From Eledone cirrhosa (Eukaryota): a stretch of DNA of 64,000 bases. The stretch spans positions 22,134,001 through 22,198,000 of the forward strand of contig OZ024749.1 in assembly GCA_964016885.1 (NCBI GenBank), written 5' to 3'. The position numbers were made by a program, and so were the translations under genes. The notes beneath the pieces are model-generated. The model was not told the DNA's origin, ran no database searches, and was given only the letters and a program-made list of their open reading frames with translations. This document shows positions 1,080 through 53,759 of this stretch, in pieces. How positions within the stretch are numbered: position 1 is the stretch's first letter; each line of letters opens with the position of its first letter.

Positions 1080-1169
1080 TATGCCATGTTTAATATCGCT
1101 TCTACAGGACTAGAACTGTTTCATTCAAAAGAAACCAGGATATATATATATATATATAATAACTGTTTC

Positions 1170-1689: not shown

Positions 1690-2660
<971 letters not shown>

Positions 2661-4494: not shown

Positions 4495-4536
<42 letters not shown>

Positions 4537-4798: not shown

Positions 4799-4841
4799 AA
4801 CAAAGTTCTTTCGTTTCACATCTGCAACATCGTCAGTGGTG
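4799..4841 (-). ncRNA. Hammerhead motif (family B), partly decayed
   Basis: Reverse complement: CA-CTGACGA-TGTTGCA(gatg)TGAAAC-GAAA-GAAC-TT-TG; stem I is short. Confidence 0.55.
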
Positions 4842-5566
4842 CTATTATGTTTCCTCCCGTTGTATGGTATGCTTACGCCATCTTTATTTAGTCTGTTTAT
4901 TTATTTATTTATTTGTTTTGTTTTTTTTGTCTTCTCTGCCCATGCGTTTGCGTGTGTGTATAGTGTTTTGTTTGATGTGTGTTCGTGTTTGGGTGACTGT
5001 GTATTGGTTATTGTATTCTATATTAGTTTGCTAGTGTGTGTTTATATGTGTTTGTTGTTATTGTGTTTGTGTATGTATTTATTTATTTATTTATTTATTT
5101 ATACTTCTCTTGGGTCAATGTTGTTTGTTTGGGTGTTGTTGTTATTCCATTCATTTCTTCTGTTTAGCCTTGGCCTTCTAAGTTCTATTTTGCTGGCCTC
5201 TCTGATTTGCCTATCTGCTGGGTCATTTCTATGTTTAGATATTATTCTAATTTCTATATTGTCTAAAGGAATGGAATAACAATAACACCCAAACATACAA
5301 CAGTGACCTAAGAGAAATATAGATAAATAAATAAATACATACACAAGCACAATAACAACAAACACATATAAAAACACACTAGCAAACTAAAATAGAATAC
5401 AATAACCAATACACAGTCACCCAAACACGAACAGCTGACATCAAACAAAACACTATACACACACGCAAACGCATGCGCAGAGAAGACAAAAACAAATAAA
5501 TAAATAAATAAACAAACTAAACAAAGATGGCCTAGGCATAAAATACAACGGGAGGAAACATAATAG

Positions 5567-5610
5567 CACCACTGACGATGATGCAGATGTGCAACGAAAG
5601 AACTTTGTTA
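5567..5610 (+). ncRNA. Hammerhead motif (family B), partly decayed
   Basis: CACCA-CTGACGA-TGATGCA(gatg)TGCAAC-GAAA-GAAC-TT-TGTTA. Confidence 0.55.
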
Positions 5611-5825
5611 GACTATATATATGTGTTTGTGTCTATATTGTATCTGTATTTTTTACCGTTGGTCAGTCAATGGTAACATTGAGGACCGAATAAATTAAAT
5701 TAACCGTTATAAAGGGCACAGAAGCGAAAAGCAACCAAACAGTGAGTGTGTTCTGTTATTAATTCTGGCAATATTATTTAACAAATATGATCCTCACCAA
5801 GTATAACTGTATTTATATATATATA

Positions 5826-5879
<54 letters not shown>

Positions 5880-5933
5880 TATTTATATATTTATATATAT
5901 ATGCATATTTATATATATATATATATATATGCA

Positions 5934-5998
<65 letters not shown>

Positions 5999-6000
<2 letters not shown>

Positions 6001-6150
6001 AAGGCGGGTAAAATTCCCGAGATCCATGGACGAGTTCTCTCCAGCGGTCTCTATCCCTCATTATCGCTGCCATGTCCTGCATCTCCAACAGACCAGTGTC
6101 TGTCCTTAGGGCATCAACATACGCTAACCTTGGTCTTCCTCTTCTAGTGT
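5999..6150 (-). mobile_element. RTE-clade LINE 3' stub
   Basis: Minus strand translates [43 protein letters not shown], the typical RTE ORF C-terminus. Flanked by (TA)n. Confidence 0.75.
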
Positions 6151-6166
6151 ATCCATATATATATAT

Positions 6167-6278
<112 letters not shown>

Positions 6279-6349
6279 ATACATATATATGGATATAGTT
6301 AGATATATAGATATGGATATATATATATGGATTAAGTTAGATCGCAGAT

Positions 6350-6450
6350 ATAAAAGACAGCGAGAAGCGAAAACCAACCAAACAGTGAGTGTTTTCTGTT
6401 ATTAATTCTGGCAATATTACACAAATATGACCCTCCCCAAGTATAACAAT
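6350..6450 (+). mobile_element. PLE family B extreme 3' fragment
   Basis: Matches 5710-5807 and 50838-50942 (gaagcgaaaaccaaccaaacagtgagtg...gaccctccccaagtataac). Confidence 0.8.
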
Positions 6451-6487
6451 ATATATATATCAATATATATATATATATATATATCCA

Positions 6488-6580
<93 letters not shown>

Positions 6581-6581
6581 A

Positions 6582-6661
<80 letters not shown>

Positions 6662-6679
6662 CCATATATATATATATAT

Positions 6680-6723
<44 letters not shown>

Positions 6724-6797
6724 ATATATATATATATATATATATATCCATATATATATATATATACATATACATATACATATATATATATATATAT

Positions 6798-6887
<90 letters not shown>

Positions 6888-7209
6888 CCATATATATATA
6901 TCCATATATATATATATATATATATCCATATATATATATATATATATATATGAATATATATATATCCATATATGGAAAGTTATATTTAAATTGTTGGGTT
7001 ACAACTAGTAAATATTTATAACTGATATAAAAGCACTCGACAAATATTTGGAGTATATTTACAATATTAAATAAATGGAAACTATATTTATAAAACCATA
7101 TTTATTTCATTATATATATTTCAGGGATATCATATTAACAATATGCTATGCCTGATATTGTATATCCATATATATATCTATATATATATATATGGATATA
7201 TATATATAT

Positions 7210-7299
<90 letters not shown>

Positions 7300-7411
7300 C
7301 GAAGGAAATGTGGTAAGGAACCAGGTGGACCATAACGCACCAAAGTACTCAATACTTGAGGTAGTAGAGTGGGTAATAGGAACCAGCTCAGCTGTCGGGG
7401 TCTTACTGGTT

Positions 7412-7445
<34 letters not shown>

Positions 7446-7982
7446 AACCACCTAGGTACTATGACATAACCTGTGTATTTGCTGGCATTAGCGTACATCT
7501 GTGCGCTTATGTTAGTAGATATATTAAATTATCTATATTTATCTCCAAATCACTGATTTGTCGAGCAAACCTGCCAAAACCACTTCTAAATTTTTTTTGG
7601 GGGTGTTAGTAGGCGTCTGTCATCTTACCATCCCATTCCTACTGACTAGCCTCTGTGTCACGTGATTGATTCTTTAGAATCGGCCATTTGACCAGTGGCA
7701 GTGAGAAATTTCGGTGCCTGGAATCCAGTCCTCGATAGCTGTTCCATTTACCGAATTATTATTATTTTTATATGAGTCCCCAGTGTCTGCGCATTGCCTG
7801 GAGACTTGGCTGAGAATAGATCTCCCTGATGACACAATGAAATTCTCAACAGTTCATTACGTAACTGTCTTTATCCCATTGCAGAAACTAATTAGTTGGA
7901 GTGAAAATTTAAGTAAGTTAATTTTTTTTTTTTTTTTTTTTTCTTATTTTACGTCTTTTATATATATATATATATAGATATA

Positions 7983-8265
7983 GATAGGTAAATATACACG
8001 GGTGTGTATGATTGTGTATAGAAGATTATATTAATAAGAGGAATTCCAACTTTGTCTGATTTACTCGTTTTATTTACAATCCTTTAAAATATATAATGGT
8101 ATTATAATGAAATAGTATGATAGAATATTAAATTCTAAGTGTTCAATTAACACTTAGAATTTAATATTCTATCATACTATTTCATTATAATACCATTATA
8201 TATTTTAAAGGATTGTAAATAAAACGAGTAAATCAGACAAAGTTAGAATTCCTCTTATTAATATA
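7983..8265. mobile_element. Fold-back palindrome of the Neptune-like PLE 3' end
   Basis: 8141-8265 matches about 34589-34712. About 7983-8143 is the reverse complement of about 34597-34757. (TA)n on both sides. Confidence 0.9.
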
Positions 8266-8342
8266 TATATATATATATATGGATATATATATATATATAT
8301 ACAAATGGATATATATATATATATCCATATATATATATATAT

Positions 8343-8392
<50 letters not shown>

Positions 8393-8468
8393 ATATATAT
8401 ATATATATATATATATCCATATATATATATATATATGGATATATATATATCCATATATATATATATAT

Positions 8469-8528
<60 letters not shown>

Positions 8529-8535
8529 ACATATA

Positions 8536-10146
<1,611 letters not shown>

Positions 10147-11175: not shown

Positions 11176-11210
<35 letters not shown>

Positions 11211-11420
11211 TTTACGTATCGAGAAAGAGAAAAAAAGCGGGGATAGGTGATACATATAGTTATTTGCCAAGTAGCGTATGCCAAAGGTGCTCGATACTAG
11301 TGCCGGCAGTATTAAATATTCGAAGTGTTAATATTTAGTGGGCTAGAGAGTTAGCAGAGCATAAGCACGTGGGAAAGTAAAAAATCGGAGAATAGACCGT
11401 TAAAACATGTTTATTTAAAA

Positions 11421-11465
11421 TATCACCTACGTACGTTTCGCCCAGTTGGGCTTCTCAAGGGCATA
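11421..11465 (-). ncRNA. Hammerhead, U3-A8 core variant
   Basis: Reverse complement: TATGCCC-TTGAGAA-GCCC(aact)GGGC-GAAA-CGTACG-TA-GGTGATA. Confidence 0.7.
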
Positions 11466-11756
11466 AATAATCACAAGTGTTCCTTATATTGCTCGGAAAG
11501 AGTTTTGGGGGTTAAATCCACATCAAGGTTCATTGCTCGCAAAAATATCTTGTTTTGATTGTGCACCAGGTCAAGGGAGGTAACTCTGGCCGGTGTTCGG
11601 GCAGTCTTTCCCGGATAATTTTTTTTTTTTTTTTTTTGCCGCATCCGTTTGTCTGAGGCTGGGTCTGGTATGCAAGGATTGTTTTCTGGGTGTTATTTTG
11701 CAGCGCCTGCCCGCCTGGGTGTTAAGACCTGTTGCAGGGAGATCCAGTGTACTATT

Positions 11757-12851
11757 TCACTCTTCATCCTTAACCCATCTAAAGAAGGATATTTTTAAGC
11801 GATGTGTACAACTTATCGCTGTTTCAGCTCTGCTGTTGATGAGCTCGTGGGGTGCAGTTATGATGTGGTAGAGCTCCATGAGGCAAAGATCGCATTTCCT
11901 CTTGAAGTTGTACGGTGAAGCCCTGCCGACAATCTCCCAGTGCGTGGAGAAGCTGATGTTTAAGTCCTTTAGTGATGTGTTGTAGTCCGCGAGCGAAGTG
12001 GAGTGCCTTAGTTTTCTATTTGTGAAAGAGTGGAGATGTGTTCGAAACCTAATTTTGAACGGGCCGGAGGTGGCCCCTATATAATGTTTAACGCTATTGT
12101 GGCTAGTTATAGTGCATCTATATATAACCCTATCAGTCAAGCAGTATCCTCTAAGGGGGCAGCGTCCTCTGTCGCGGCAGTTGCAATTTCTGTCGCGGTT
12201 CCGTCTATTTCCCACGGTAAGGCTATCATTGTTGCTGCCTACGTTGTTACCTACGCTACCGCAGCTGTCGTTAGCACAATTACAACCCACAGCACGCGGG
12301 ATGGTGCGATTGTTATTCCGCACGTCATGTTCTGCATGTTCCCCAGTTACTTCGCGGTCATTCTGGTTGCGTCTGCGGATGCCGTTGCCAACACTATTGG
12401 ATGCTGCCAGGGAGTTGTTAAGGCCGATATAGTTATTGTCAGGTGTAGGTGCGTCTGTGTCGAGGTGCTGTGTCTTGGTCATCTTACTGTGGTTCGTTGT
12501 TCCTATGATGTCTGCTAGGTTAGGAGTAGTAGAGAAGAATATTTTTATATTGTTCCTATTAAGAATTTTTCTATACCTATGGTTGGGCGGGAAGTTCTTC
12601 TCTAAGGCTTCGAAGAACATCCGGGGTATGTTGGAGGCCACACTCCGAGAGTAGGAGGGGTGGAACCATAGGACGTTACGGTGGCGATTACGTGTCCTTG
12701 TACTTTTGCTACGGGTGGTTCCATCTAAGTGACCGCTCTTATGTGTGTTAATGCGCAGTCGCCCGTTCGGTGCCCCTTTCACTTTATGCTCGGGTGCACT
12801 CTTTCTACCTCTTCCATGTTTATGTACACGAAGATGTTGGTTGGACCCCAT
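11757..12851 (-). pseudogene. PLE linker plus GIY-YIG endonuclease
   Basis: RNVLWFHPSYS, CNC-x5-CPLRGYCL, YIGATSGPFKIRFRTH, CDLCLME, LINSRAE..SCTH. Confidence 0.88.
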
Positions 12852-12990
12852 CGTGACATCGAAGTTATCAGGACGGTTGGTTCTGGTCCAGTGGGAGCCT
12901 TCGAACTGGATAATGGTTCTACGTGCCGCTAGAATTATGTCTATTTCTTTTTTAGTGAGGCTAGTGTTAGGTCTAGCTAAGATAAGTGCC

Positions 12991-13806
12991 TTATTTAAGA
13001 GTATGGGGGGAGATAGAGGCGTAGTAGCTATCTATATCAAACTGGATGAATTTCAGGGTGGCTTTATCCGGCAACTCGGTGAACCAATTTATGACCTGGT
13101 CGGTGTTGCCCCAGAGGCAGACCTTAGCCTTTCTATTAAGCTCGAGTAGTACTCTGTCGAGGATCACTTTACTAATCTTACCTATATCTGATGTAGAGGG
13201 GCATATTAGTCTAATAGAGGGGCTTTCATTAAAGTCATATTTGTGATCCTTAAGAGAGAATTTAGGCGTCAGAGAGACGTACGGGTAAGTGTACTTTTCT
13301 ATTTCTAAGCTGGTGACTATATCCTTCCCTACTCTATTTATGTCATTTAGGGTACTAGAGGGTGTCTTTTTGTAGTCTTTGTGTAGTTCCTTATAGATGA
13401 ATTTTTTATACTCACTCGCGTCCATCTTGTACAGCTTTTTGGTTTTGTCGGAGGTGACGAAAAGGTGCGGGTCATTCCTGATCTTAGTTATTAGTGTATC
13501 AAGGGACATTAAGAATGGATTGCTGCATTGGTGTTTCTTTCTGAGCTTAACGTTTTTGATCATTTTCTGCAGGTCCTCTTCAAAGGAGTCCAGTAAGGTG
13601 TTGTGTGGTGGGTTTCGGTATGTTTTGAAACCATACTTCTCTTTGGGTTCAGGAAGGTTACGGGTGTTCTTATCCAGGGGGTAGGCCTTCCATCTGACTC
13701 TCCGTATAAACGAATTAGTAGCGTCTATAAGCAGTTTAATGTAGGTTTTTCTGCTGGGTAAGGGGATACACTTGAGAGACATGGGTAACGGCTGGTTCTC
13801 CAACAT
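12991..13806 (-). pseudogene. PLE N-terminal and RT fingers segment
   Basis: DK motif, RLICP, RT motif A FDIDSYYASI; frameshifted downstream. Confidence 0.85.
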
Positions 13807-13983
13807 AATGGTAAATAAGGTGAGATGCTCTACAAAAGGAGCACGGTAATATAGTATTTACGTATCGAGAAAGAGAAAAAAAGGGGGGATAGGTGATACA
13901 TATAGTTATTTGCCAAGTATCGTATGCCAAAGGTGCTCGATACTAGTGCCGGCAGTATTAAATATTCGAAGTGTTAATAGTAG

Positions 13984-15644
<1,661 letters not shown>

Positions 15645-16108: not shown

Positions 16109-16112
16109 TATC

Positions 16113-16872
16113 AATTAAGTTAAAAATGTACATCTACATATGCATACTGAAATACTAGTGTGTATATGAATACACACACGTATACATATGTAGGTGTACC
16201 AAGTCTTTCGCTGGTCGCTTTGTAAAGCGACCAGTGAAAGACTTGGTACACCTACATATGTATACGTGTGTGTATTCATATACACACTAGTATTTCAGTA
16301 TGCATATGTAGATGTACATTTTTAACTTAATTGTTTAAGCGTCAGTCATACAAAAGTGAGTTACAAACGAAACGAAATTTAATTTCGTTTCGTTATTTGT
16401 TTTTATCGTCTCCGCTGAACCGGTGCGTACTCACACTCTATGCAAATTAGTCTGCCCACTACTAATTTTCATAGAAAAAGCATATAACGATATGTGCTTT
16501 TACAATTCTCCAGAAAGGCCGGTAGATAGGTAAATATTGCTGATGAGTTGTAACAACAACGAAACAAGTTCAATATTCCTTGTCTGGCTTTCTGGAGAAT
16601 AGGGGGAAGGTGTTCCCCCTAAAAACCAGTATGACTCTAAAAACCGGTTTGTCTGTGTGTTTACATACAGAATAGTTGGGCCGCTCACTGTAAAGCGACC
16701 AGTGAAAGACTTGGTACACCTACATATGTATACGTGTGTGTATTCATATACACACTAGTATTTCAGTATGCATATGTAGGTGTACATTTTTAACTTAATT
16801 GTTTAAGCGTCAGTCATACAAAAGTGAGTTACAAACGAAACGAAATTTAATTTCGTTTCGTTATTTGTTTTT
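16113..16872. mobile_element. Non-coding HHR element, 468 bp unit, partial tandem plus inverted arm
   Basis: tgtaaagcgaccagtg at 16221 and 16689. 16113-16221 is the reverse complement of 16224-16332. (TA)n flanks. Confidence 0.88.
16533..16577 (+). ncRNA. Type I minimal hammerhead
   Basis: AATATTG-CTGATGA-GTTGT(aaca)ACAAC-GAAA-CAAG-TT-CAATATT; 7 bp stem I and 5 bp stem II pair perfectly. Confidence 0.92.
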
Positions 16873-16895
16873 ATATATATATCCATATATTATAT

Positions 16896-24712: not shown

Positions 24713-24746
<34 letters not shown>

Positions 24747-24803
24747 TATTAAAAAAATAATGAATAAACAAAGAAACAGTTCCTTATAGTAAACAAAAAA
24801 AGT

Positions 24804-24944
24804 TCATTATTTTACGATCGTTTCTAGGACATATATGTGTTAGAATTGGTATGCATATTCAAAAGATCTATGTACAAAATTATACAAACTATCAGAGGGA
24901 ATATACATACCTTCACATATATATGCTGTCTTCAGAAATAATGA
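24804..24944 (-). ncRNA. Hammerhead with about 100 nt stem II (mirror copy)
   Basis: Reverse complement of 31214-31354. Confidence 0.75.
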
Positions 24945-25646
24945 TGCTTGTTTATTGATAATAACAACAATTCAATACAATAGGTCTGTTTGGGAACAGA
25001 TTTTAAATAGACCAATGAAATAGAGATTGAAATTCATCAAGAAAATATAGTTAGGTGTGTGTATATGTATGTAAATACGCTCACAGATGTGCATATATGT
25101 GTATGCTCATATGTATACGTATAGTGAAAAAGTGTGTGTAAATCTAAAATTTAGGGCTAATGTATCTGTATGTCTGTAATCAACAGACGGAATAGATACA
25201 TCATAAGTATATGAATATTGAGGCGCTCACATAAACACGCCCACACACACTTACATTTAGATGCGGAAGTAAAAGAGGTAAGGGAGTATAGTAATTAAAG
25301 GAAAGTGTCAATCTCGACATACTTATAAAAATGTATCAATAAATTAGAAATAAAAAATTTTTAGAAGGAAAAAACTCAAGAAAAGAAGACAAAAAAAGAC
25401 AAAAAGGGGGGGTACATACATACACAGACACGCATGTCTCACAAAAGAAACATAAAAAAACATAAAAGAGAGACATAAAATTATACATGCTTATATACAC
25501 ACGCACATTTACACATCCATACGTTCGATACGTATATACATACACACACACATACACATACTTACACTCACGCATATTGACCTGTTTGTATGCACACGCA
25601 TAAAAATAAGTAAAACATATACCCATACATATATATATATATACAC

Positions 25647-25683
<37 letters not shown>

Positions 25684-26924
25684 TACACATGTATATATAC
25701 AACCACTCACACACACTCAGACATACATATATATAGACATACACACACATATATACACAGTCAGACACATATACACATATATACACATACATACACACAT
25801 CCCTACACATACATATATATATGTATATATATATATATATGCATACATAAGTATTTTTATCCTCACATACATACACACATACATAGATACACACTTACAT
25901 ATACATACACACATCCACGCTTACATATACATATAATTATTGGGGGGGGGATTAAATTTATTAGTGGGAAATAGTAAATATATAGGTTTCAAGGAACATA
26001 GAATACTAACCTGCAGTTAAAGCTTTATATGTGTTTACTTAGTGGTATCAGATTTAGGAAATGGTATTTGTAAGAAGGAAAGCCAAAATTATGTATTTTA
26101 ATATAAGTAGAATATTAATTATAGGTTAACTAAATTAAAAATAGTTTATATATTAATTTCTAAGGTGTATACTAATTAGGTTTATAATATTTAAAGCGGA
26201 ATTTTGAAGTTCATCAGTATTAGAGTATTAATTATAGCTTAACTAAATTAAAAATAATTACATATATTTACTTGATGGTATCAGTTTTAGGAAATGAATT
26301 TTGTAAGAGGGAAAGCCAAATTAAGTAGTTTATCGGTAGTAGATTATTAATTATAGGTTAACTAAATTTAAAAAAAAAAAAATTTTATATATTAATTTCT
26401 ATAGTATATGTTAATTAGGTTTATAATATTTAAAGCAGAATTTTGTATTTTATCTATAGTAGAATTTTCTAAAGTGTATATTAATTAGGTATATATTTAA
26501 AAGTTTTTCTCAGTTTATGATTACACGATATTTTGTATTTCATCTGTAGTAGAATTTTAATTATAAGTTAACTAAATTAAAATTATAGGTTAACTAAATT
26601 AAAATTAATTTATATATTAATTTCTAAATTGTATATTAATTAGGTTTATAATATTAAAAAGTTTTTCTCCGTTTTTAATTACACGATATTTTGTTGTATT
26701 TCATCTGTAATAGAATTTTAATAATAGGTTAAATAAACTAAAATTAATCTATATATTAATTTCTAAAGTGTATATTAATTAGGTTAATAATATTTAAATG
26801 TTTTTCTCAGTTTATGATTATACGATATTTTTTATTTCATCTGTAGTAGAATTTTAATTAAATTAAAATTATAGGTTAACTACATTAAAATTAATTTATA
26901 TATTAATTTCTAAAATATATATTA

Positions 26925-27652
26925 TTAATTAGGTTTATAATATTTAAATGTTTTTCTCAGTTTATGATTACACGATATTATTAATTCCTGTCGCTTATTT
27001 AATAGGATATCCTTAGATTTCATTATTTCAAATAGTTCTTGGGAACACAATCTACATTCATTTCTATTATTTTGATAAGGGGTGGCTCTTTTGAGCACAA
27101 TCCAGGTCATATCATATTCTATATTCCTTCTTCTATAACTATTAATTTTTCTGCTAGAGATGTTGTATGCCAGTGCGGCATTTTTAAAACTATGTTTGTG
27201 GGTATTAAATCTTACCTTAAAATTGTTAGAAGTAGCTCCTATATATGAGCAAAAAGAATCCTTAGTTTTAACTTTACATTTATATACTATGTTATTAACA
27301 AGACAATTTCCTTTTAATGGGCAGTTTGCCTTGTTTCTACAGTTACAACCTTTCGTTAATTCTGTATTTGAGGAGATATTATGGCTAGTTTGATGTACTG
27401 GTGGTATACTTATGGTTTTTTTACATTTATATGCATTATAGGCACTTATATTTTGTTTTATGTTTTTGGTTGTTGAGTATGAGAATTTAACTGTTGATCT
27501 ATTTAAGATTTGATGGTATTTGTGGTTTGGCGGGAAGTTTTTCTCTAGGATATTAAAGAATTTTTTAGGTATATTATCCTTAATTTGTAAATTAAATGGA
27601 GCATTATACCAAGTAACTCGTCTATTACGGTTTCTATGTTGTTTATTGTTTT
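26925..27652 (-). pseudogene. Mirror copy of the GIY-YIG segment
   Basis: Protein identical to the C-terminal part of 28230-29213. Confidence 0.9.
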
Positions 27653-29213
27653 CTAACTTAACTTTGGATGACATTAATATTATTACACATGCTAGACTAA
27701 CACTAATTGAATTTCAGAATGAATACTGGACCAGAAACACATATAGTAATCTATTTGATATTACTATGGGCTCAAGCGATTCTGCCCAAATTACTGATCT
27801 TGTGGGCCTCTTTCTTCTTTTTAACATAAATGCTTCCTTTCCCCACCTTAACGGTGGTTTATATCGTGACGACTGTCTTCTTCTTTCCAATAACCTTAGC
27901 CTCTCAGAGATAGAAAAAACAAAAAGCTTATTAGAACTTTCCTTAAAGACTATTATAGTCTAGATATTACATTTGAAAACACAAGTAAAGTAGTTAATTT
28001 CCTAGATATAACATTAGACTTAGCTACGGGTATCTACCAACCTTACCATAAACCCAACCAAAATTTACACTACATACACTCACAATCTAATCACCCTAAA
28101 TCTATCATTAAAAACCTTGCATATAATATATCACTTAGAATTTCTAACCTTTCGTCTAACCAAGATGTATTTGATAAAAATGCGACCTTTTATAACGAAG
28201 CTCTAGCTAGAAGTGGCCACAAAAATAGATTGGAATATATACCTTCTACCAATAACACTATAAACATACAACCTAATATTACCAACAAACACCAAATGAA
28301 ACGTACACACCTAAATGCCACTCACACTATACCCCAAAATACCAACATAAAACCAAATTTCTCTAACTCCTCTAATATACAGTATAGTAACTCTCAAAAA
28401 ACTACTCATCCTACAACTCTAATAAATGTTAATGATAAAACTCCTAATAAACAAGCTAAAACACCTAAATCAATAAATCTAACTAAAAACAATAAACAAC
28501 ATAGAAACCGTAATAGACGAGTTACTTGGTATAATGCTCCATTTAATTTACAAATTAAGGATAATATACCTAAAAAATTCTTTAATATCCTAGAGAAAAA
28601 CTTCCCGCCAAACCACAAATACCATCAAATCTTAAATAGATCAACAGTTAAATTCTCATACTCAACAACCAAAAACATAAAACAAAATATAAGTGCCTAT
28701 AATGCATATAAATGTAAAAAAACCATAAGTATACCACCAGTACATCAAACTAGCCATAATATCTCCTCAAATACAGAATTAACGAAAGGTTGTAACTGTA
28801 GAAACAAGGCAAACTGCCCATTAAAAGGAAATTGTCTTGTTAATAACATAGTATATAAATGTAAAGTTAAAACTAAGGATTCTTTTTGCTCATATATAGG
28901 AGCTACTTCTAACAATTTTAAGGTAAGATTTAATACCCACAAACATAGTTTTAAAAATGCCGCACTGGCATACAACATCTCTAGCAGAAAAATTAATAGT
29001 TATAGAAGGAGGAATATAGAATATGATATGACCTGGATTGTGCTCAAAAGAGCCACCCCTTATCAAAATAATAGAAATGAATGTAGATTGTGTTCCCAAG
29101 AACTATTTGAAATAATGAAATCTAAGGATATCCTATTAAATAAGCGACAGGAATTAATAATATCGTGTAATCATAAACTGAGAAAAACATTTAAATATTA
29201 TAAACCTAATTAA
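27653..29213 (+). pseudogene. PLE RT (C-terminal half), linker and GIY-YIG; 5'-truncated and frameshifted
   Basis: FDITMGSSDSAQITDLVG, GGLYRDDCL, VNFLDITLDL, YHKPN..YIH.QSNHP, RRVTWYNAPF, CNCRNKANCPL, YIGATSNNFKVRFNTH, CRLCSQE. Confidence 0.9.
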
Positions 29214-30465
29214 TAATATATATTTTAGAAATTAATATATAAATTAATTTTAATGTAGTTAACCTATAATTTTAATTTAATTAAAATTCTACTACAGATG
29301 AAATAAAAAATATCGTATAATCATAAACTGAGAAAAACATTTAAATATTATTAACCTAATTAATATACACTTTAGAAATTAATATATAGATTAATTTTAG
29401 TTTATTTAACCTATTATTAAAATTCTATTACAGATGAAATACAACAAAATATCGTGTAATTAAAAACGGAGAAAAACTTTTTAATATTATAAACCTAATT
29501 AATATACAATTTAGAAATTAATATATAAATTAATTTTAATTTAGTTAACCTATAATTTTAATTTAGTTAACTTATAATTAAAATTCTACTACAGATGAAA
29601 TACAAAATATCGTGTAATCATAAACTGAGAAAAACTTTTAAATATATACCTAATTAATATACACTTTAGAAAATTCTACTATAGATAAAATACAAAATTC
29701 TGCTTTAAATATTATAAGCCTAATTAACATATACTATAGAAATTAATATATAAACATTTTTTTTTTTTTTTTATTTAGTTAACCTATAATTAATAATCTA
29801 CTACCGATGAACTACTTAATTTGGCTTTCCCTCTTACAAAATTCATTTCCTAAAACTGATACCATCAAGTAAATATATGTAATTATTTTTAATTTAGTTA
29901 AGCTATAATTAATACTCTAATACTGATGAACTTCAAAATTCCGCTTTAAATATTATAAACCTAATTAGTATACACCTTAGAAATTAATATATAAACTATT
30001 TTTATTTTAGTTAACCTATAATTAATATTCTACTTATATTAAAATACATAATTTTGGCTTTCCTTCTTACAAATACCATTTCCTAAATCTGATACCACTA
30101 AGTAAACACATATAAAGCTTTAACTGCAGGTTAGTATTCTATGTTCCTTGAAACCTATATATTTACTATTTCCCACTAATAAATTTAATCCCCCCCCCCC
30201 CAATAATTATATGTATATGTAAGCGTGGATGTGTGTATGTATATGTAAGTGTGTATCTATGTATGTGTGTATGTATGTGAGGATAAAAATACTTATGTAT
30301 GCATATATATATATATATATACATATATATATGTATGTGTAGGGATGTGTGCATGTATGTTTATATATGTGTATATGTGTCTGACTGTGTATATATGTGT
30401 GTGTATGTCTATATATATGTATGTCTGAGTGTGTGTGTGTGAGTGGTTGTATATATACATGTGTA

Positions 30466-30507
<42 letters not shown>

Positions 30508-31213
30508 TGTATATATATATATGTATGGGTATATGTTTTACTTATTTTTATGCGTGTGCATACAAACAGGTCAATATGCGTGAGTGTAAGTATGTGTATG
30601 TGTGTGTGTATGTATATACGTATCGAACGTATGGATGTGTAAATGTGCGTGTGTATATAAGCATGTATAATTTTATGTCTCTCTTTTATGTTTTTTTATG
30701 TTTCTTTTGTGAGACATGCGTGTCTGTGTATGTATGTACCCCCCCCCCCCCTTTTTTGTCTTTTTTTGTCTTCTTTTCTTGAGTTTTTTCCTTCTAAAAA
30801 TTTTTTATTTCTAAGTTATTGATACATTTTTATAAATATGTCGAGATTGACACTTTCCTTTGATTACTATACTCCCTTACCTCTTTTACTTCCGCATCTA
30901 AATGTAAGTGTGTGTGGGCGTGTTTATGTGAGCGCCTCAATATTCATATACTTATGATGTATCTATTCCGTCTGTTGATTACAGACATACAGATACATTA
31001 GCCCTAAATTTTAGATTTACACACACTTTTTCACTATACGTATACATATGAGCATACACATATATGCACATCTGTGAGCGTATTTACATACATATACACA
31101 CACCTAACTATATTTTCTTGATGAATTTCAATCTCTATTTCATTGGTCTATTCAAAATCTGTTCCCAAACAGACCTATTGTATTGAATTGTTGTTATTAT
31201 CAATAAACAAGCA

Positions 31214-31354
31214 TCATTATTTCTGAAGACAGCATATATATGTGAAGGTATGTATATTCCCTCTGATAGTTTGTATAATTTTGTACATAGATCTTTTGAA
31301 TATGCATACCAATTCTAACACATATATGTCCTAGAAACGATCGTAAAATAATGA
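31214..31354 (+). ncRNA. Type I hammerhead with about 100 nt stem II
   Basis: TCATTATTT-CTGAAGA-[catatatatgtg..ggtatgtatattc...gaatatgcatacc..cacatatatg]-GAAA-CGATCG-TA-AAATAATGA; perfect 9 bp stem I. Confidence 0.78.
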
Positions 31355-31548
31355 ACTTTTTTTGTTTAATATAAGGAACTGTTTCTTTGTTTATTCATTA
31401 TTTTTTTAATAATTTATCTTGACTCTGTTTTCCGTTTATCTTTCACCGAAAGTGGTTTTTGAATGCATCTCTTCTTTTAATGATATCCGGATTACATTGA
31501 GTTCTTCATACGGATTGGACACTACCGTAAACTTTTGGTAGATTTATC

Positions 31549-31621: not shown

Positions 31622-34600
31622 AGATCTCAACAGAGATTACCCACAAGAAACTGGGCGAAAAAACGATCTAAACCTGAAAGCAAACCTAGGTCATTTCCCC
31701 AGATTGTTAAAAATAATGCTAACAAGAAATGGAAAAATAATATACAGAATACCAAAAATAGGACAAAATACATAACGAAACCAAATATAATATCACGACC
31801 AAATGTTCATCAAGCGAACACCAACAGGAATATAAATCCTGAACAGAGAAAAATCCATTTTTTAACGTCAGGACAACAAAAATCGGAAAAAGAAAAACTC
31901 CAGGAGGAAACATACCCAAAACAACTGTACACGTAGATCCTAAAAATAATTAATTTATCCAAAAGAGATCTTGACAATGATGAAATGCAAATTCTGTCAA
32001 AAGGACTGAAATTCACACCGACTCCAACAGTCAATCACCAAGAACTGAAGGAGGATACCCAAGAATTCTGTCGAAAATTACGTCTTGTAGAATTCTTCGC
32101 TGATAAAAATAATGAGAGTGATGAATCACTAGTAAAGAATAAATCAAATTTCACTCCGCCAAAAGGAAGAAATATCTATCTCGACCAATAAATTGACATC
32201 CTGTCTAAATTTCCTCTTAGACGTAATACTAATGTTAGGCCAAACATTAACAAATCAGAAATGTCTGCACTTATACGTATACAAAATTATAAAACAATAA
32301 TAATTAAACAAGCAGATCAAGGGTGTGCAGTTGTTATAATGGATACTGAATACTACAAGGATTTGGTTGAGGAACAACTGAAAGACACAACATTCTATCA
32401 TGAAATACCGTCAAATATAGACCACAACATCATGAAGAAGATCAACAACCTGGCTTCAAAATACCACAACTCATTTACTGATAAGGAAAGAGACTACATC
32501 ACCAATTTTGAGCCAAAACCCAGCAACCTGTATGGCCTACCGAAAGTTCATAAGTCAAAATAAATACAACTGGCAGTAAGAGAACAAAACAGTGAGTACA
32601 TTAAATTACTACACCCAAAAGACTTAAAACTTAGACCTATTATAGCTGGTCAAACATGCCCACCCCACCGTCTAAGCAATATTGTTGACATTATTTTGAA
32701 ACCACTATGTATTCACATACCCAGTTTCATCCGGGATGATATCGACTTCCTGTCCCATCTTCCCCAAACCACGGAAACGAATTCACTTCTACTTAGTTTT
32801 GATGTGGTAAGCCTTTACACCAACATTACACATGATTTAGGAATAAAGGCGGTTAAATACTGGGTGGAAAAACATAGAGAAGTGATTCCCATCAGATTCA
32901 CAGCGCCATTTATATTAGACGCAGTTAAACTTATTCTGGAAAACAACACTTTCTTCTTCAATGGAAAGAATTACATCCAAACTAGAGGCACAGCGATGGG
33001 AACGAAGTTTGCTCCCGTTTACGCGAACTCTGTAATGGGATACTTAGAACAACAACTCAACCAAGAAATAGAGGAAAAATATAGTACTGACTTTAGAAAG
33101 TACATTGAAAAATCTTGGAAGAGATACCTTGACGACTGTTTCATCATCTGGACAGAATATCTAGATACTCTGGATGAGTTCAATATCCTCCTGAATAACT
33201 TACACCCATCTCTCCAATTCACAAAAGTGATGAGTAGGACCAAATTACCATTCCTAGATATAATTATAATCAAAAACGACACCACCATTACCACGGATAT
33301 ATATTATAAACACAGACACCCATCAATATCTGAATTTTAAGTCGTTGCATCCACCTCATACAAAACGCAACATCCCATACTGCCTAGCCAGAAGAATTTG
33401 TACCATTGTAGAAGATACGAATACCAGGTACAAACGCCTAACAGAACTAAGAGAATGTTTGCTCAAACAAAAATACCCATTTCTACTTATAGAAAATGGC
33501 ATACAGCGGGCTATAAAAATACCTATACAACAACTTAGGACAACCCAAGGAAGAAGAAACCAAGAACTGGTCATACCATTTATAATGACACACAACCCAT
33601 GTCACCAGAATATCTTCAACACTGCCAAAGCAAACCTACCGATCATTGCTCAAAGTAATGAATTAAAAGGCTTAATCACAGATCGATCTTTGACTCTTAG
33701 TAAAAGACAGCCAAAAAATTTGAAGCAATTACTAACAAAAGCAAAGTTTGACCTTAACAACAAAGACCAATCATTCACTGTATCTAAATGCAATGATAGT
33801 CGATGCGGCACATGTCAATCCATACACGCCGGTCAATATATGAAAACAAAAACTGGAAAAATATTCCCAAATGCAAATATGAACTGCAAAAGCAGAAATC
33901 TAATTTACTGCATTAAATGCCCGAATTGTGAAGAACTATATGTCGGTCAAACTGGAAATGCACTATCGGAACGTGCACGGGTACACCGTCAGCAAATTAG
34001 AGACCCAAATGTCCGTCAGATACCCCTAAGTAACCATCTAGCAACATGTGGTCAGGGAATATTTATAATATTCCCATTCTACAAATTACACAGTCCAAGT
34101 GAAATCAAGAGAAAAATCAAAGAAAAGAATTTTATTGATAAATTCAAACCCAAGCTAAATGAACAATAATAACACTTAGGAGTATTACTTCTACTATGAC
34201 TATGACTACGACCATGTCGACTACGACCACTAACAACAACAACAACATTAATAATAATAATAAAAGTGATGTTGATGGTGATGATTACTAGAAAATGCTA
34301 TTTTCATCATTTCTAAAAATAGCAAAACGATTGATGCTTTGGATAGGATCAATTATTGGTCGTTAGACATGCTCAACCAATCGTGACGCTTAAACCAATC
34401 AGCTTTAGTAATCCAGTGAAACTACACACCGATTGGTCGAAATACAGTTTGCAAGATTTAGCATTCTGGAGACACTTATCACTGTATATAAGGTACAAAA
34501 TTTACCCATCTCATTACAGTTGAAAATTGCAAACTTGACTGTCACCACACATTATGAACCTGAAGATTGCGAAAGCATGAAAGTACTTGTTCAATTAACA

Positions 34601-47310: not shown

Positions 47311-47504
<194 letters not shown>

Positions 47505-47707
47505 TATGTACACGTACATACACATATGTATACCGACGTACAGTAGTATGTATATATATATATACATACATGCACACATATATATATGCACGTATGGATT
47601 CACCGAACATTTATTATAATGCTCGGTGTGTTTGTAAACAAACATCCCGTATTAAGCCGTAGTGTCTAGCAACCACCGTTGCTCGTTTGTTCAACACTGA
47701 CAAAGGA

Positions 47708-47750
47708 ACGCTGTACTAGTTTCAAGCTTGTTAGCTATCGTCAGCAACGT
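47708..47750 (-). ncRNA. Hammerhead of the 422 bp unit (also at 48130-48172 and 48552-48594, minus)
   Basis: Reverse complement: ACGTTG-CTGACGA-T-AGCT(aaca)AGCT-T-GAAA-CTAG-TA-CAGCGT. Confidence 0.88.
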
Positions 47751-48659
47751 ATACCTTCCTGCCAGATTGTTGAACGTATATACTTACCTTATGCATATTA
47801 ACGGCTGAGTAGCCCAATATGCATATCGAGTGGGTTAATCGGCCGGGTGCACCGAAAACGATAAACGGAAAAAATGAAACGATATTTCATTTCCCACTCT
47901 TAGTACGGCTGTTACTTAAATATAAGTATGTACACGTACATACACATATGTATACCGACGTACAGTAGTATGTATATATATATATACATACATGCACACA
48001 TATATATATGCACGTATGGATTCACCGAACATTTATTATAATGCTCGGTGTGTTTGTAAACAAACATCCCGTATTAAGCCGTAGTGTCTAGCAACCACCG
48101 TTGCTCGTTTGTTCAACACTGACAAAGGAACGCTGTACTAGTTTCAAGCTTGTTAGCTATCGTCAGCAACGTATACCTTCCTGCCAGATTGTTGAACGTA
48201 TATACTTACCTTATGCATATTAACGGCTGAGTAGCCCAATATGCATATCGAGTGGGTTAATCGGCCGGGTGCACCGAAAACGATAAACGGAAAAAATGAA
48301 ACGATATTTCATTTCCCACTCTTAGTACGGCTGTTACTTAAATATAAGTATGTACACGTACATACACATATGTATACCGACGTACAGTAGTATGTATATA
48401 TATATATACATACATGCACACATATATATATGCACGTATGGATTCACCGAACATTTATTATAATGCTCGGTGTGTTTGTAAACAAACATCCCGTATTAAG
48501 CCGTAGTGTCTAGCAACCACCGTTGCTCGTTTGTTCAACACTGACAAAGGAACGCTGTACTAGTTTCAAGCTTGTTAGCTATCGTCAGCAACGTATACCT
48601 TCCTGCCAGATTGTTGAACGTATATACTTACCTTATGCATATTAACGGCAGGAAGGTAT

Positions 48660-48702
48660 ACGTTGCTGACGATAGCTAACAAGCTTGAAACTAGTACAGC
48701 GT
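48660..48702 (+). ncRNA. Hammerhead of the 422 bp unit (also at 49082-49124, plus)
   Basis: ACGTTG-CTGACGA-TAGCTAACAAGCTT-GAAA-CTAG-TA-CAGCGT; palindromic ACTAGT. Confidence 0.88.
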
Positions 48703-49387
48703 TCCTTTGTCAGTGTTGAACAAACGAGCAACGGTGGTTGCTAGACACTACGGCTTAATACGGGATGTTTGTTTACAAACACACCGAGCATTATAATAAA
48801 TGTTCGGTGAATCCATACGTGCATATATATATGTGTGCATGTATGTATATATATATATACATACTACTGTACGTCGGTATACATATGTGTATGTACGTGT
48901 ACATACTTATATTTAAGTAACAGCCGTACTAAGAGTGGGAAATGAAATATCGTTTCATTTTTTCCGTTTATCGTTTTCGGTGCACCCGGCCGATTAACCC
49001 ACTCGATATGCATATTGGGCTACTCAGCCGTTAATATGCATAAGGTAAGTATATACGTTCAACAATCTGGCAGGAAGGTATACGTTGCTGACGATAGCTA
49101 ACAAGCTTGAAACTAGTACAGCGTTCCTTTGTCAGTGTTGAACAAACGAGCAACGGTGGTTGCTAGACACTACGGCTTAATACGGGATGTTTGTTTACAA
49201 ACACACCGAGCATTATAATAAATGTTCGGTGAATCCATACGTGCATATATATATGTGTGCATGTATGTATATATATATATACATACTACTGTACGTCGGT
49301 ATACATATGTGTATGTACGTGTACATACTTATATTTAAGTAACAGCCGTACTAAGAGTGGGAAATGAAATATCGTTTCATTTTTTCC

Positions 49388-49446
<59 letters not shown>

Positions 49447-49478: not shown

Positions 49479-50941
49479 GTTTTGCGAGGTTTATTTTATA
49501 TGAAATCGTGTGTCGAAACAAATATTGTTATACTACCTGTATTAGACACGGAACTCTGGATTAACACTATAGACGAGAGAGCCCAAATTCTCCACTCACA
49601 CAATGCTAAACCCATGGCCTCCAAATACCTGATACTCAAAAACTCACCAATGTCCAGTAGTGCTAAGTTTAATATTCTGATCGCAGATTTGGTACGAGTG
49701 ATGAAGAATGTGTCCCGCATGTGCGACCCATAGTAATGGAAAGACACATCCAACACTTCATCAACCGCATACAGTTCTCTGGCTACAACCAAAGAGACAG
49801 AGTCAGAGTATACGAAGGAGCCATGGAGAAGTATAAGACCCTCATAGAACTGGACATGAAAGGAATTTGCCCATTATACAGGAGCAAATCATGGAATAGC
49901 TTAGATAGGGCTAGACATAAGATAGGGAAAGCCACCTCATGGTACGACAACCAGAGATACCAGAGTGTCATGTTTGTGGACGCTACCCCTGGAGGGAAAT
50001 TAGCTAACCAGTGTAGAAAGGCCCTGAGAAAGACCCACTTAAAAATAAAGGTGGTAGAAAAGCCAGGAACCACCATAAAATCCCTGATCAGCAAAACCTA
50101 CCCTTTTAAGAAAACCCACTGTACCAATAGGAAATGTATCATATGTAAGGTGAACCCCGGGATAAACAGTAAAACTAGAAACGTAGTCTATAGCATAAGA
50201 TGTACAGAGGGTACCTGCAGAAACATGACAACAACATACATAGGTGAAACATAGACAACATAGAAATTAGAATAATATTTAAACATAGAAATGACCCAGC
50301 AGATAGGCAAATCAGAGAGGCCAGTGAAATAGAACTTAGAAGGCCAAGGCTAAACAGAAAGAATGAATGGAATAACAACAAAACCCAAACAAACAACAGT
50401 GACCTAAGAGAAGTATAAATAAATAAATAAATAGATAAATAAATAAATAAATACATACACAAGCACAATAACAACAAACACATATAAACACACACTAGTA
50501 AAGATAGAATACATTAACCGATACACAGTCACCCAATCACGAACACACATCAAACAAAACACTATACAGACACGCAAACGCTTGCGCAAAGAAGACAAAA
50601 TAAAATAAAGAAACAAACAAATAAATAAATAAATATATAGACAGACTAAATAAAAATGACGTAGACATACAATGTAACGGGAGGAAACAATAGCACCACT
50701 GACGATGTTGCAGATGTGCAACGAAAGAACTTTGATAAACTATATATATGTGTTTGTGTCGATATTGTATCTGTATTATTTTTGACCGTTGGTCAGTCAA
50801 TGGCAACATTGAGGACCGAATAAATTAGATTACCGATATAAAAGACAGAGAAGCGAAAAGCGAAAACCAAACAAACAGTGAGTGTGATCTATTATTAATT
50901 CTGGCAATATTACACAAATATGACCCTCCCCAAGTATAACC

Positions 50942-50945
<4 letters not shown>
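49479..50945 (+). mobile_element. 5'-truncated PLE family B with a short inverted 3' end at 49479-49532
   Basis: LPVLDTELWI, ILIADLVRVMKN, SVMFVDATPGG, CTNRKCIIC, NVVYSIRC..YIGET then an internal deletion. 49479-49532 matches 4568-4619. Confidence 0.9.
50694..50737 (+). ncRNA. Hammerhead motif (family B)
   Basis: CACCA-CTGACGA-T-GTTGCA(gatg)TGCAAC-GAAA-GAAC-TT-TGATA; stem II perfect, stem I weak. Confidence 0.62.
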
Positions 50946-50988
<43 letters not shown>

Positions 50989-51315
50989 TATACATATATA
51001 TATATAGACATATATATATATATATACATATATATACATATATATATATATATACATATATTTATATATATAACAATATATTTAGAAACACACAGATACA
51101 TGCGGACACACATATATATACATGAATGCATCCGCACCCAACTGTGAGTTAAGGGTGCCAACTTCACCGATGTTGCTCAATGAATGACTGGGACAGACCA
51201 ATTCAGTTTGAACTAGACTGAACCAGTATCAGAGTTAAAAATACATTATGAAGAGAGAAGAAACATTTAGATATAATTAGTAATAAAATGTATCATACCC
51301 AAACTGCTCCTAAAT

Positions 51316-51403
51316 TCCTCGACTACGTAGTTTCGTGGCATAAACAAAAACAATATATCAAAGATATAGAGTCCTTGCGAGGTCTGCCGACTTATCAAGA
51401 GGA
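51316..51403 (-). ncRNA. Hammerhead, U3-A8 core
   Basis: Reverse complement of 52433-52520. Confidence 0.8.
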
Positions 51404-51838
51404 TACCCCATTTTACTAGTCTCAAGAACGCGTCTACACGACGTGAGAAAGAATCCCAAAAGGCGGAGGGGGAGATAGTCACGCGATATAACGGTCGAGA
51501 AACAGAGCTAAGCCTCTTATAACCACGAAGAAAATACCACGGAGGCGGAGGGGGTATTCATATCGAGGCCGTAGAAGAGGTAGTGAAGAAGGCGAGAAGT
51601 ATGAGTAATGGAAGCTTTCCAGTTGTCCCCACACTTCAAAGATTGCTCGACCAGAGGGAGTTATTAACAATATATTTAGAAACACACCTGGTTATAAGAG
51701 GCTTAGCTCTGTTTCCGTGGTTATAAGAGGCTTAGCTCTGTTTCTCGACCGTTATATCGCGTGACTATCTCCCCTCCGCCTTTTGGGATTCTTTCTCACG
51801 TCGTGTAGACGCGTTCTTGAGACTAGTAAAATGGGGTA

Positions 51839-51926
51839 TCCTCTTGATAAGTCGGCAGACCTCGCAAGGACTCTATATCTTTGATATATTGTTTTTGTTT
51901 ATGCCACGAAACTACGTAGTTGAGGA
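51839..51926 (+). ncRNA. Hammerhead, U3-A8 core, GUU triplet
   Basis: TCCTC-TTGATAA-GT(c)GGCA...TGCCAC-GAAA-CTACGTAG-TT-GAGGA. Confidence 0.78.
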
Positions 51927-52432
51927 ATTTAGGAGCAGTTTGGGTATGATACATTTTATTACTAATTATATCTAAATGTTTCTTCTCTCTTCATAATGTA
52001 TTTTTAACTCTGATACTGGTTCAGTCTAGTTCAAACTGAATTGGTCTGTCCCAGTCATTCATTGAGCAACATCGGTGAAGTTGGCACCCTTAACTCACAG
52101 TTGGGTGCGGATGCATTCATGTATATATATGTGTGTCCGCATGTATCTGTGTGTTTCTAAATATATTGTTAATAACTCCCTCTGGTCGAGCAATCTTTGA
52201 AGTGTGGGGACAACTGGAAAGCTTCCATTACTCATACTTCTCGCCTTCTTCACTACCTCTTCTACGGCCTCGATATGAATACCCCCTCCGCCTCCGTGGT
52301 ATTTTCTTCGTGGTTATAAGAGGCTTAGCTCTGTTTCTCGACCGTTATATCGCGTGACTATCTCCCCCTCCGCCTTTTGGGATTCTTTCTCACGTCGTGT
52401 AGACGCGTTCTTGAGACTAGTAAAATGGGGTA

Positions 52433-52520
52433 TCCTCTTGATAAGTCGGCAGACCTCGCAAGGACTCTATATCTTTGATATATTGTTTTTGTTTATGCCA
52501 CGAAACTACGTAGTCGAGGA
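52433..52520 (+). ncRNA. Hammerhead, U3-A8 core, GUC triplet
   Basis: TCCTC-TTGATAA-GT(c)GGCA...TGCCAC-GAAA-CTACGTAG-TC-GAGGA; palindromic ACTACGTAGT. Confidence 0.82.
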
Positions 52521-52589
52521 ATTTAGGAGCAGTTTGGGTATGATACATTTTATTACTAATTATATCTAAATGCTTCTTCTCTCTTCATA

Positions 52590-52670
<81 letters not shown>

Positions 52671-52706
52671 TATATATATATATACATATAGTTTTAATGT
52701 AGATGA

Positions 52707-52755
52707 GATTCTACAGGACTAGAACTGTTTCATTCTTTAGAAATCATCAGGAATC
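52707..52755 (-). ncRNA. Type I hammerhead (left arm of a 135 bp palindrome)
   Basis: Reverse complement: GATTC-CTGATGA-T-TTC(taaa)GAA-T-GAAA-CAG(ttctagtc)CTG-TA-GAATC. Confidence 0.82.
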
Positions 52756-52758
52756 CCT

Positions 52759-52807
52759 GATTCCCGATGATTTCTAAAGAATGAAACAGTTCTAGTCCTG
52801 TAGAATC
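52759..52807 (+). ncRNA. Hammerhead copy with a U4C core mutation (right arm)
   Basis: GATTC-CCGATGA-TTTCTAAAGAAT-GAAA-CAGTTCTAGTCCTG-TA-GAATC. Confidence 0.7.
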
Positions 52808-52890
52808 TCATCTATATTAAAACTTTCATACTCTGCAATGTATTGAGTACCTTACTTACTGTGGTTACCTCCGATTCAACCCGGAATAAC

Positions 52891-53164: not shown

Positions 53165-53219
53165 ACTGCTATATGTATTTCGGTGACAGCCATCTTTGGC
53201 TGTGACCTCTTCAGGCAGT
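53165..53219 (-). ncRNA. Type I minimal hammerhead in a non-coding island (53115-53762)
   Basis: Reverse complement: ACTGC-CTGAAGA-GGT(c)ACAGCCA(aaga)TGGCTGT(c)ACC-GAAA-TACATA-TA-GCAGT. Confidence 0.88.
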
Positions 53220-53759
53220 CCGAATTAGTGTGGTAGAGACGAGTACACATGTTGTTGAGGTGTTTAACTTTGTCAATACTTTGATATGCCCAGTTCCTGG
53301 TTGGGTTGTTATTTCACTGAGGAACTGGAATCATATGAATTTAAACAAACGAATTTCAGCGTCAAAGGAATCTTTTCCTCTCATTAGTCAGTTGTGAGAA
53401 CATTCCTCAGTCAAAAGTCTATAGAAATTTGTTCTGAGGCGAGGGAATCTGTAGTGGTTGTTCTTGTTATTGTTAAGTACATCTGACCTCTACTCTTATG
53501 TTGGTAGTGGTGTTGGTTTTGGAGTCAGCTCAAACAAATGATAAAGTGGTAGAAGGAATAAGATGGTAAAAGAACAAAATAAAATAAGATAATCAAATAA
53601 AATGTGTGTGTTATACCCAATCTCAATGTTAGAAAGATTTGTAAGGTCACTCCTCCCATTGGTCAGTTGTGAGAGCATTCCTCAGTCAAAAGTCTATAGA
53701 AATTCTTTCTGGGGTGAGGCCACCTGTAGTGTTTGTTTTTGCTATAAAAATATAAAAAT

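Follow-up and report, generated by a model that had tools for sequence, protein, structure and literature searches.

A 593-nt non-coding repeat with a U3-A8 hammerhead motif and a stuttered inversion junction, inserted in (TA)n DNA of Eledone cirrhosa

The window, a 64,000-nt stretch of Eledone cirrhosa DNA that we analysed as a whole, is microsatellite-rich animal DNA full of Penelope-like elements (PLEs). Region 51071-52595 consists of an inverted arm, an extra C, a 27-nt stretch, a full unit and a partial unit of a non-coding repeat (Table 1). The tandem part amounts to 1.48 units and the inverted arm to 1.04 units, with a head-to-head joint between them; read 5' to 3', each arm runs outward until its outer end enters (TA)n. 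The outward-facing 3' end of the left arm lies 250 nt downstream of the site at which a hammerhead ribozyme motif is predicted to cleave, at a TA microhomology, and that of the right arm 80 nt downstream of the same site, at a TAT microhomology; the two 3' ends are thus 170 nt apart in the unit, compared to the 30-40-bp tail of PLEs. No target-site duplication was readable in the flanking microsatellite.

Table 1. Features of the 593-nt element and its hammerhead motifs (positions in the window)
Feature	Positions	Strand	Details
Left target flank	50935-51070	.	(TA)n-rich microsatellite, located where an older Penelope-like remnant has its 3' end; from sequence and remnant protein
Inverted arm	51071-51687	-	617 nt, one unit plus 23-nt terminal redundancy
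Hammerhead copy 1	51316-51403	-	core UUGAUAA from 51398, GUC, C17 at 51321
Untemplated base	51688	+	single C at the inversion junction
Templated stutter	51689-51715	+	27 nt, identical to 51718-51744
Full non-coding unit	51716-52308	+	593 nt
Hammerhead copy 2	51839-51926	+	core from 51844, GUU, position 17 is T at 51921
Partial second tandem unit	52309-52595	+	287 nt
Hammerhead copy 3	52433-52520	+	core 52438-52444, C17 at 52515
Copy 3, helix I	52433-52437/52516-52520	+	
Copy 3, extended helix II	52445-52501	+	
Copy 3, GAA	52502-52504	+	
Copy 3, helix III	52505-52514	+	palindromic
Right target flank	52596-52690	.	(TA)n microsatellite

The unit repeats with a period of 593 nt (51716 to 52309), or 594 nt in copies with an extra C, and its three overlapping copies differ at three sites only: the middle copy lacks the C at 51771 and carries C-to-T at 51921, and the right copy carries T-to-C at 52573. 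Arm identity is 99.6-99.8%, the arms lie 160 nt out of register and each has private differences. No other copy of the unit was found elsewhere in the 64-kb window. The preliminary description had called this a 593 bp non-coding element, and the 593-594-nt period bears it out: the unit has no RT and GIY-YIG frame, and the longest stop-free frame in a unit dimer is below 90 aa. Region 51071-52595 is not an autonomous PLE. No tRNA or tRNA-derived head was found in the unit. GC content is 42% for the 594-nt monomer, which folded as a circle gave z = -4.8 against 40 dinucleotide shuffles.

The 27 nt written twice at the inversion occur a third time at 52311, within the tandem. They had been taken for the start of the element, written at 51689 and again at 51718; the duplication stands and the start does not, because the 27 nt lie inside the head-to-tail unit and coverage in a public sequencing run, X1, runs on across 52308/52309. 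A contig from a second run, X13, begins at 51719, but so do all pieces, and a fixed 5' start at 51716-51719 may be no more than convention. No exact microhomology accounting for the stutter was seen on inspection of the junction. Among the pieces listed from four runs, none crosses the inversion junction and none shows a joint at which the strand changes. The best reading of the stutter is a one-off junction scar. A comparison of the ends with reverse-transcription stops at hairpin entry was mixed, with the 5' end of the left arm in the top 1.2% of positions and the right-arm and stutter ends in the top 23-25%; the two ends of a neighbouring 422-nt repeat ranked 1.0 and 0.35, and we draw no support from this comparison.

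Every copy of the unit carries a predicted ribozyme with helix I UCCUC/GAGGA (DNA TCCTC/GAGGA), a G10.1-C11.1 pair, a 57-nt helix II arm, GAA and, as helix III, the 10-nt palindrome ACTACGTAGT; the order within the ribozyme is GAA, then the palindrome ACUACGUAGU, then position 17. The three helices, a Watson-Crick 3-8 pair (here U-A), G5, A6, A9, G12-A13-A14, A15.1-U16.1 and H17 are all present. Judged by its sequence, the motif qualifies as a well-formed hammerhead of type I whose 3-8 pair is compensated. The core UUGAUAA, the perfect stem I and the 10-nt palindromic stem III of the preliminary description were found in all three copies, as was its series GUC, GUU, GUC (C at 51321, T at 51921, C at 52515). 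Its further claim, that both 3-8 partners had changed together to U3-A8, also held, with the other core positions, G10.1-C11.1 and the three helices intact. Just 3' of the predicted cleavage site lies a hairpin (51922-51990) in which pair 51935:51979 is G-U, G-C in the right copy and A-U in X1 and X13, and pair 51942:51973 is G-U or A-U; these changes hint at conserved structure.

A relaxed pattern scan gave eight matches in the window, three in the 593-nt element and five in the neighbouring repeat, and a mean of 0.17 matches in block-shuffled windows (30 shuffles). The strict form, with a palindrome of at least 8 nt and helix I of at least 5 bp, was absent from 30/30 block shuffles. The preliminary description held that searches restricted to CUGANGA miss such a motif, and standard libraries do miss it: in Rfam the whole window gave no match at gathering score and 51650-52620 gave no hammerhead among its seven matches at E<=10. 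We took these seven sub-threshold matches (miRNA, VrrA and NEAT1 models) to be hairpins matched by chance; the length of the helix II arm (57 nt) may be part of the reason for the Rfam miss.

In the energy model the active form of the monomer lies at -20.7 kcal/mol and the free fold at -21.8 kcal/mol, 1.1 kcal/mol apart, and the pairing probability of monomeric helix III is only 0.06-0.08, while the palindrome duplex is predicted at -12.9 kcal/mol. Helix II is a long three-segment hairpin, and in the circular fold the 3' strand of the ribozyme pairs elsewhere. The strength of the palindrome duplex combined with the weakness of the monomeric helix III points to cleavage as a dimer, following the dimer model set out in PMC4209133. 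The modelled energies suggest that the ribozyme is likely to cut in this way.

Words of the unit were present in 20 public runs/rows from 16 studies, and four of the 24 listed runs (X1, X13, X15 and X22) were compared over 691 of the 1,525 bases (51650-52340). Run X1 yielded 1,548 contigs, a figure that is not a copy number, and 21 variable sites at a frequency of at least 3%; its coverage was continuous around the whole unit, and no X1 variant at or above that frequency fell in the UUGAUAA core or the basal stems. Position 17 was C in 325,346 of a depth of 325,445. Since C dominates position 17 in X1, the GUU of the middle copy is a private change, at a CpG. U3-A8 with GUC is the family consensus in X1, and a CUGAUGA consensus, one of the outcomes that would have counted against the preliminary description, was not what we found: no core substitution reached 3% in that run. 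Variants in the helix II arm (A-U to G-U at 51886, and a TA insertion in the loop) keep the fold. In one X15 contig, of depth 2.7 and with the partner base uncovered, helix I base 51923 is changed from A to C.

The ends of the window copy recur in these runs. At 52001, which corresponds to the right end of the window copy, eight X1 contigs pass from the unit into (TA)n, and ten X1 contigs leave it at 52166, within 5 nt of the left end; a 471-nt X13 contig runs from 51719 to 52167 and then into (TA)n, again within 5 nt of the left end. Loose ends at 52166 may come partly from unrelated simple repeats (52122-52166 is of low complexity). Among 11 of the 122 loose ends there was no recognisable coding flank. 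One X15 contig crosses the head-to-tail unit junction. X13 and X15 each contributed two low-depth contigs, and X22 (1,938 million letters, raw reads) held no real copy, with 12 reads on a low-complexity patch only. The variable sites and the (TA)n-joined ends in X1 support a multi-copy dispersed family. We do not infer a wide taxonomic spread, as among the four runs compared a rich family was seen in X1 only. Pattern scans of metagenome contigs and viral contigs gave no matches and thus no hint of a viral or viroid-like origin.

We also examined the variation for signs of structural selection, and neither of two tests reached significance. The 42 constrained hammerhead positions held none of the 21 variable positions (52147 and the 20 X1 rows that remain when position 17 is set aside), where 1.5 were expected (P about 0.21). 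Predicted pairs were broken by 5/25 substitutions, compared to 7.7 expected (P = 0.11), in a set of 24/28 rows plus one window difference from which four low-complexity rows, mainly of X22, were left out; 15/20 substitutions at paired positions kept the pair.

The neighbourhood of the element contains several repeats of related layout. Two Hydra-like coding elements lie in the window, with CxCx5C in both, and RWK and DKT in one; PMC8557442 uses these motifs to define the Hydra clade. The element at 11203-15462 has RWK, DKT and CxCx5C, a head-to-head inversion in (TA)n and a 131-nt terminal redundancy on its long arm. It also has a hammerhead-like motif of the U3-A8 kind, UUGAGAA, starting at 15371 (+) and 11458 (-), whose helix I is imperfect. 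The junction of this element holds a 27-nt insert with a small hairpin (13980-14006), which matches the element over 8 nt at most. In the 422-nt non-coding repeat at 47495-49393, a hammerhead with C3-G8 is present in five copies; this repeat has tandem and inverted arms in (TA)n, a circular fold with z = -8.8 and a clean 3-nt GGC microhomology at its inversion. As 11203-15462 and 47495-49393 share the layout and have different junctions, the layout is generic in the window and the junctions vary by case. A frameshifted remnant of Penelope RT and GIY-YIG lies at 32564-34166; among its named matches, an Octopus sinensis protein has the highest identity, 74% across 57% of the query, and the other named matches are bivalve (49-64%), which makes an octopod source likely.

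Further elements were noted in passing. Another Hydra-like coding element, at 24741-31417, is arranged as an inverted pair of 2.9 kb, and its 3' UTR is repetitive internally; near 31222-31350 a candidate C3-G8 hammerhead, read by eye, combines a greatly extended helix II with a helix III palindrome of 8 nt. Between (TA)n tracts, 16112-16874 holds a near-perfect 222-nt fold-back followed by a partial tandem of 468-nt period, in which a CUGAUGA hammerhead-like core lies at 16540. The broken Penelope-like remnant at 49496-50940 has a Cx4CxxC linker before a GIY-YIG-like motif, Neptune-like, and a hammerhead-like core at 50699; the (TA)n where this remnant ends on its 3' side is the place of the 593-nt element, and pieces related to the remnant occur in 65-10026. 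Directly to the right of the flanking microsatellite, 52690-52822 is a MITE-like, near-perfect inverted repeat of about 130 nt, and 53170-53220 (-) is a decayed canonical Penelope-type hammerhead with a CUGAAGA core from 53214 and a broken helix III palindrome.

We compared the element with published systems as these are described in the portions of the cited papers available to us. Perreault et al. (2011; PMC3088659) report that C3-G8 covaries to U3-A8 in several natural hammerheads and state that activity of such variants in vitro had been demonstrated before. The 593-nt element shares this 3-8 covariation in a different genomic setting, and its own activity is a prediction. Cervera and De la Pena (2014; PMC4209133) describe U3-A8 in about 1,300 Penelope-associated hammerheads of Schistosoma, with a palindromic helix III and low activity in vitro, and set out a dimer model and a circular-template model. 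The rarity of U3-A8 that the preliminary description implied was therefore not upheld: the variant is already published, and a second, unrelated U3-A8 motif occurs in the same window. The Schistosoma Cercyon hammerheads resemble ours in being type I with a 5-bp helix I, G10.1-C11.1, a bulged helix II, U3-A8, a palindromic helix III fit for dimers and opposite-strand copies a few hundred bases apart. Compared with them, as PMC4209133 presents them, the palindrome of the 593-nt element is longer, at 10 nt, positions 9 and 10.1 follow each other without an extra base, and the ribozyme is hosted by a non-coding unit to which no PLE frame is joined.

Among PLEs more broadly, Craig et al. (2021; PMC8557442) describe partial tandems, an inverted 5'-truncated copy and a bias to (TA)n, and include Hydra-1_Obim from Octopus bimaculoides; the Hydra hammerheads listed in File S2 of that paper all have CUGANGA cores, with C3-G8. 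The 593-nt element is like Hydra-clade PLEs in its (TA)n insertion, its partial tandem with an inverted 5'-truncated copy and its hammerhead near the 3' end. It differs from the PLEs that paper describes in lacking an ORF, in its U3-A8 core and in ends 170 nt apart rather than a 30-40-bp tail, and it has no sequence homology to the Hydra-like elements of the window.

Non-LTR retrozymes are defined by Cervera and de la Pena (2020; PMC7229834) at 150-450 bp, with PLEs as candidate drivers. Li, Clavereau and Pollet (2026; bioRxiv 10.64898/2026.07.22.740005) argue that retrozymes derive from PLE terminal repeats, give a range of 51-972 bp and report cleavage in 1/9 predicted retrozyme dimers in vitro. 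The unit, at 593-594 nt, exceeds the former range and lies within the latter. Non-coding tandem units with one type I hammerhead each, GC below 50%, a strongly self-paired circular fold and co-occurrence with PLEs are shared with animal non-LTR retrozymes, whereas the U3-A8 core, the 57-nt helix II arm, the inverted 5' copy and the (TA)n targeting set the element apart from them as so far described in these sources. At L1 inversion junctions (PMC11702581) microhomology, untemplated bases, short duplications and template switches are found; this is an analogy only, with a left-arm outer / right-arm inner end offset of 137 nt here versus 1-10 bp in L1. A search of titles and abstract beginnings found no description of the 593-nt family, and the supplementary figures of PMC4209133 may hold molluscan U3-A8 motifs. 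The 593-nt element is a new family built from known parts.

Taken together, we consider it probable that the locus is a recent insertion of a non-autonomous, hammerhead-bearing retroelement, similar in type to animal non-LTR retrozymes and reliant on a PLE for its enzyme. The region has at least two consecutive tandem units with a type I hammerhead (cores at 51844 and 52438, the second unit being partial), is non-coding, has a GC fraction of 0.42 (below 50%) and a highly self-paired circular fold, and shows the layout of a PLE insertion product, a partial tandem plus an inverted copy in (TA)n. The preliminary description did not name this Penelope/retrozyme context, which explains the whole structure. 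No similarity of the unit to 10 segments of the window, including the 3' UTRs of coding PLEs, was found (for the best, 7/100 shuffles scored as high). This counts against the reading, as do the 170-nt difference between the 3' ends, the non-significant tests of structural selection, the helix I change in the X15 contig, the circular fold with the ribozyme's 3' strand paired elsewhere, the failure of 8/9 retrozyme dimers to cleave in the 2026 preprint, and the possible share of simple repeats among the loose ends at 52166.

In the mechanism we propose, tandem copies would be transcribed into multimeric RNA, in which two hammerheads would pair through the 10-nt palindrome as an intermolecular helix III and cut after GUC, yielding monomers of ~594 nt that are possibly circularised. 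The GIY-YIG endonuclease of a PLE would nick a (TA)n target, and both target ends would serve as primers for reverse transcription, using short UA microhomologies located 80 nt and about 250 nt downstream of the cleavage site. Both cDNAs would pass an intact cleavage site for more than one unit, and their two ends would be joined head to head, leaving the extra C and the re-copied 27 nt. Target-primed reverse transcription on tandem or circular RNA would be the most economical account. As the arms are longer than one unit and cross the cleavage site, the template would have been either an uncleaved multimer or a re-ligated circle.

Two routes could give rise to the stutter. The reverse transcriptase may slip back about 29 nt and re-copy 27, or a repair polymerase may copy, release and re-prime; polymerase theta leaves templated insertions. 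The phrase 'aborted and restarted synthesis' in the preliminary description is a reasonable reading of this junction, although sequence cannot separate re-engagement of a reverse transcriptase from templated insertion by a repair polymerase.

A more specific scenario is possible but, taken as a whole, rather doubtful. Here a circular retrozyme RNA would be reverse-transcribed round the circle from both nicked (TA)n ends by a Hydra-clade Penelope enzyme with two preferred priming sites, a selected U3-A8 hammerhead able to act only as a dimer would cut multimers and spare the circle, and the stutter would mark the enzyme re-engaging its template.

It is improbable that the unit is instead the 3' terminal repeat (pLTR) of an autonomous PLE outside the window and the locus a heavily 5'-truncated tandem/inverted insertion of it. 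The coding Hydra-like element at 11203-15462 does have the same architecture, with a short terminal redundancy on its left arm too (131 nt) and 3' ends that differ by 164 nt, and U3-A8 was found by homology to a Cercyon PLE in PMC4209133. However, the unit closes on itself head to tail without coding sequence, X1 coverage is continuous round it and the X15 contig crosses the unit junction, and the loose ends inspected (11 of 122) have no recognisable coding flank.

Slightly less probable still is that the hammerhead is an inherited weak or inactive passenger, with the element moving as uncleaved tandem transcripts and U3-A8 as tolerated drift. Every arm reads through intact cleavage sites, the conservation tests were not significant, PLE hammerheads cleave poorly in vitro (PMC4209133), 8/9 Xenopus dimers showed no cleavage (bioRxiv 10.64898/2026.07.22.740005) and hammerhead-less PLE clades proliferate well (PMC8557442). 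Drift of this kind fits poorly with a core in which both 3-8 partners have changed and the other core positions, G10.1-C11.1 and the three helices are intact, and with the scarcity of variants in X1, where none at or above 3% touches the core or basal stem and those in the helix II arm keep the fold. That the inversion and stutter arose without reverse transcription, through fold-back or repair at the level of DNA or as an artefact of assembly, is very improbable: no compared contig spans the junction and the arms are 99.6-99.8% identical, but their private differences and 160-nt register offset argue against a simple fold-back, both outer ends match 3' ends in other runs, and similar inverted structures with arm identity of 85-100% recur through the window.

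The core variant and the insertion architecture are both already published, and the significance of the locus is modest in that respect. What it adds is a young, intact non-coding hammerhead repeat with the marks of Penelope-type insertion, namely a head-to-head inversion, arms longer than one unit and (TA)n 3' ends that recur in other samples. The retrozyme-type insertion that we favour is relevant to the debate, not yet settled, on the enzyme by which animal retrozymes are mobilised, and the locus offers a clean natural substrate for U3-A8 in a hammerhead predicted to depend on dimers. Descriptors restricted to CUGANGA undercount such motifs, as U3-A8 occurs in two of the distinct hammerhead families of this window. 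If the reading with a circular template is true, the locus would be locus-level evidence for the still-hypothetical mobilisation of retrozymes by PLEs, and would point to a sizeable class of U3-A8 hammerheads that has been overlooked among cephalopod PLEs.
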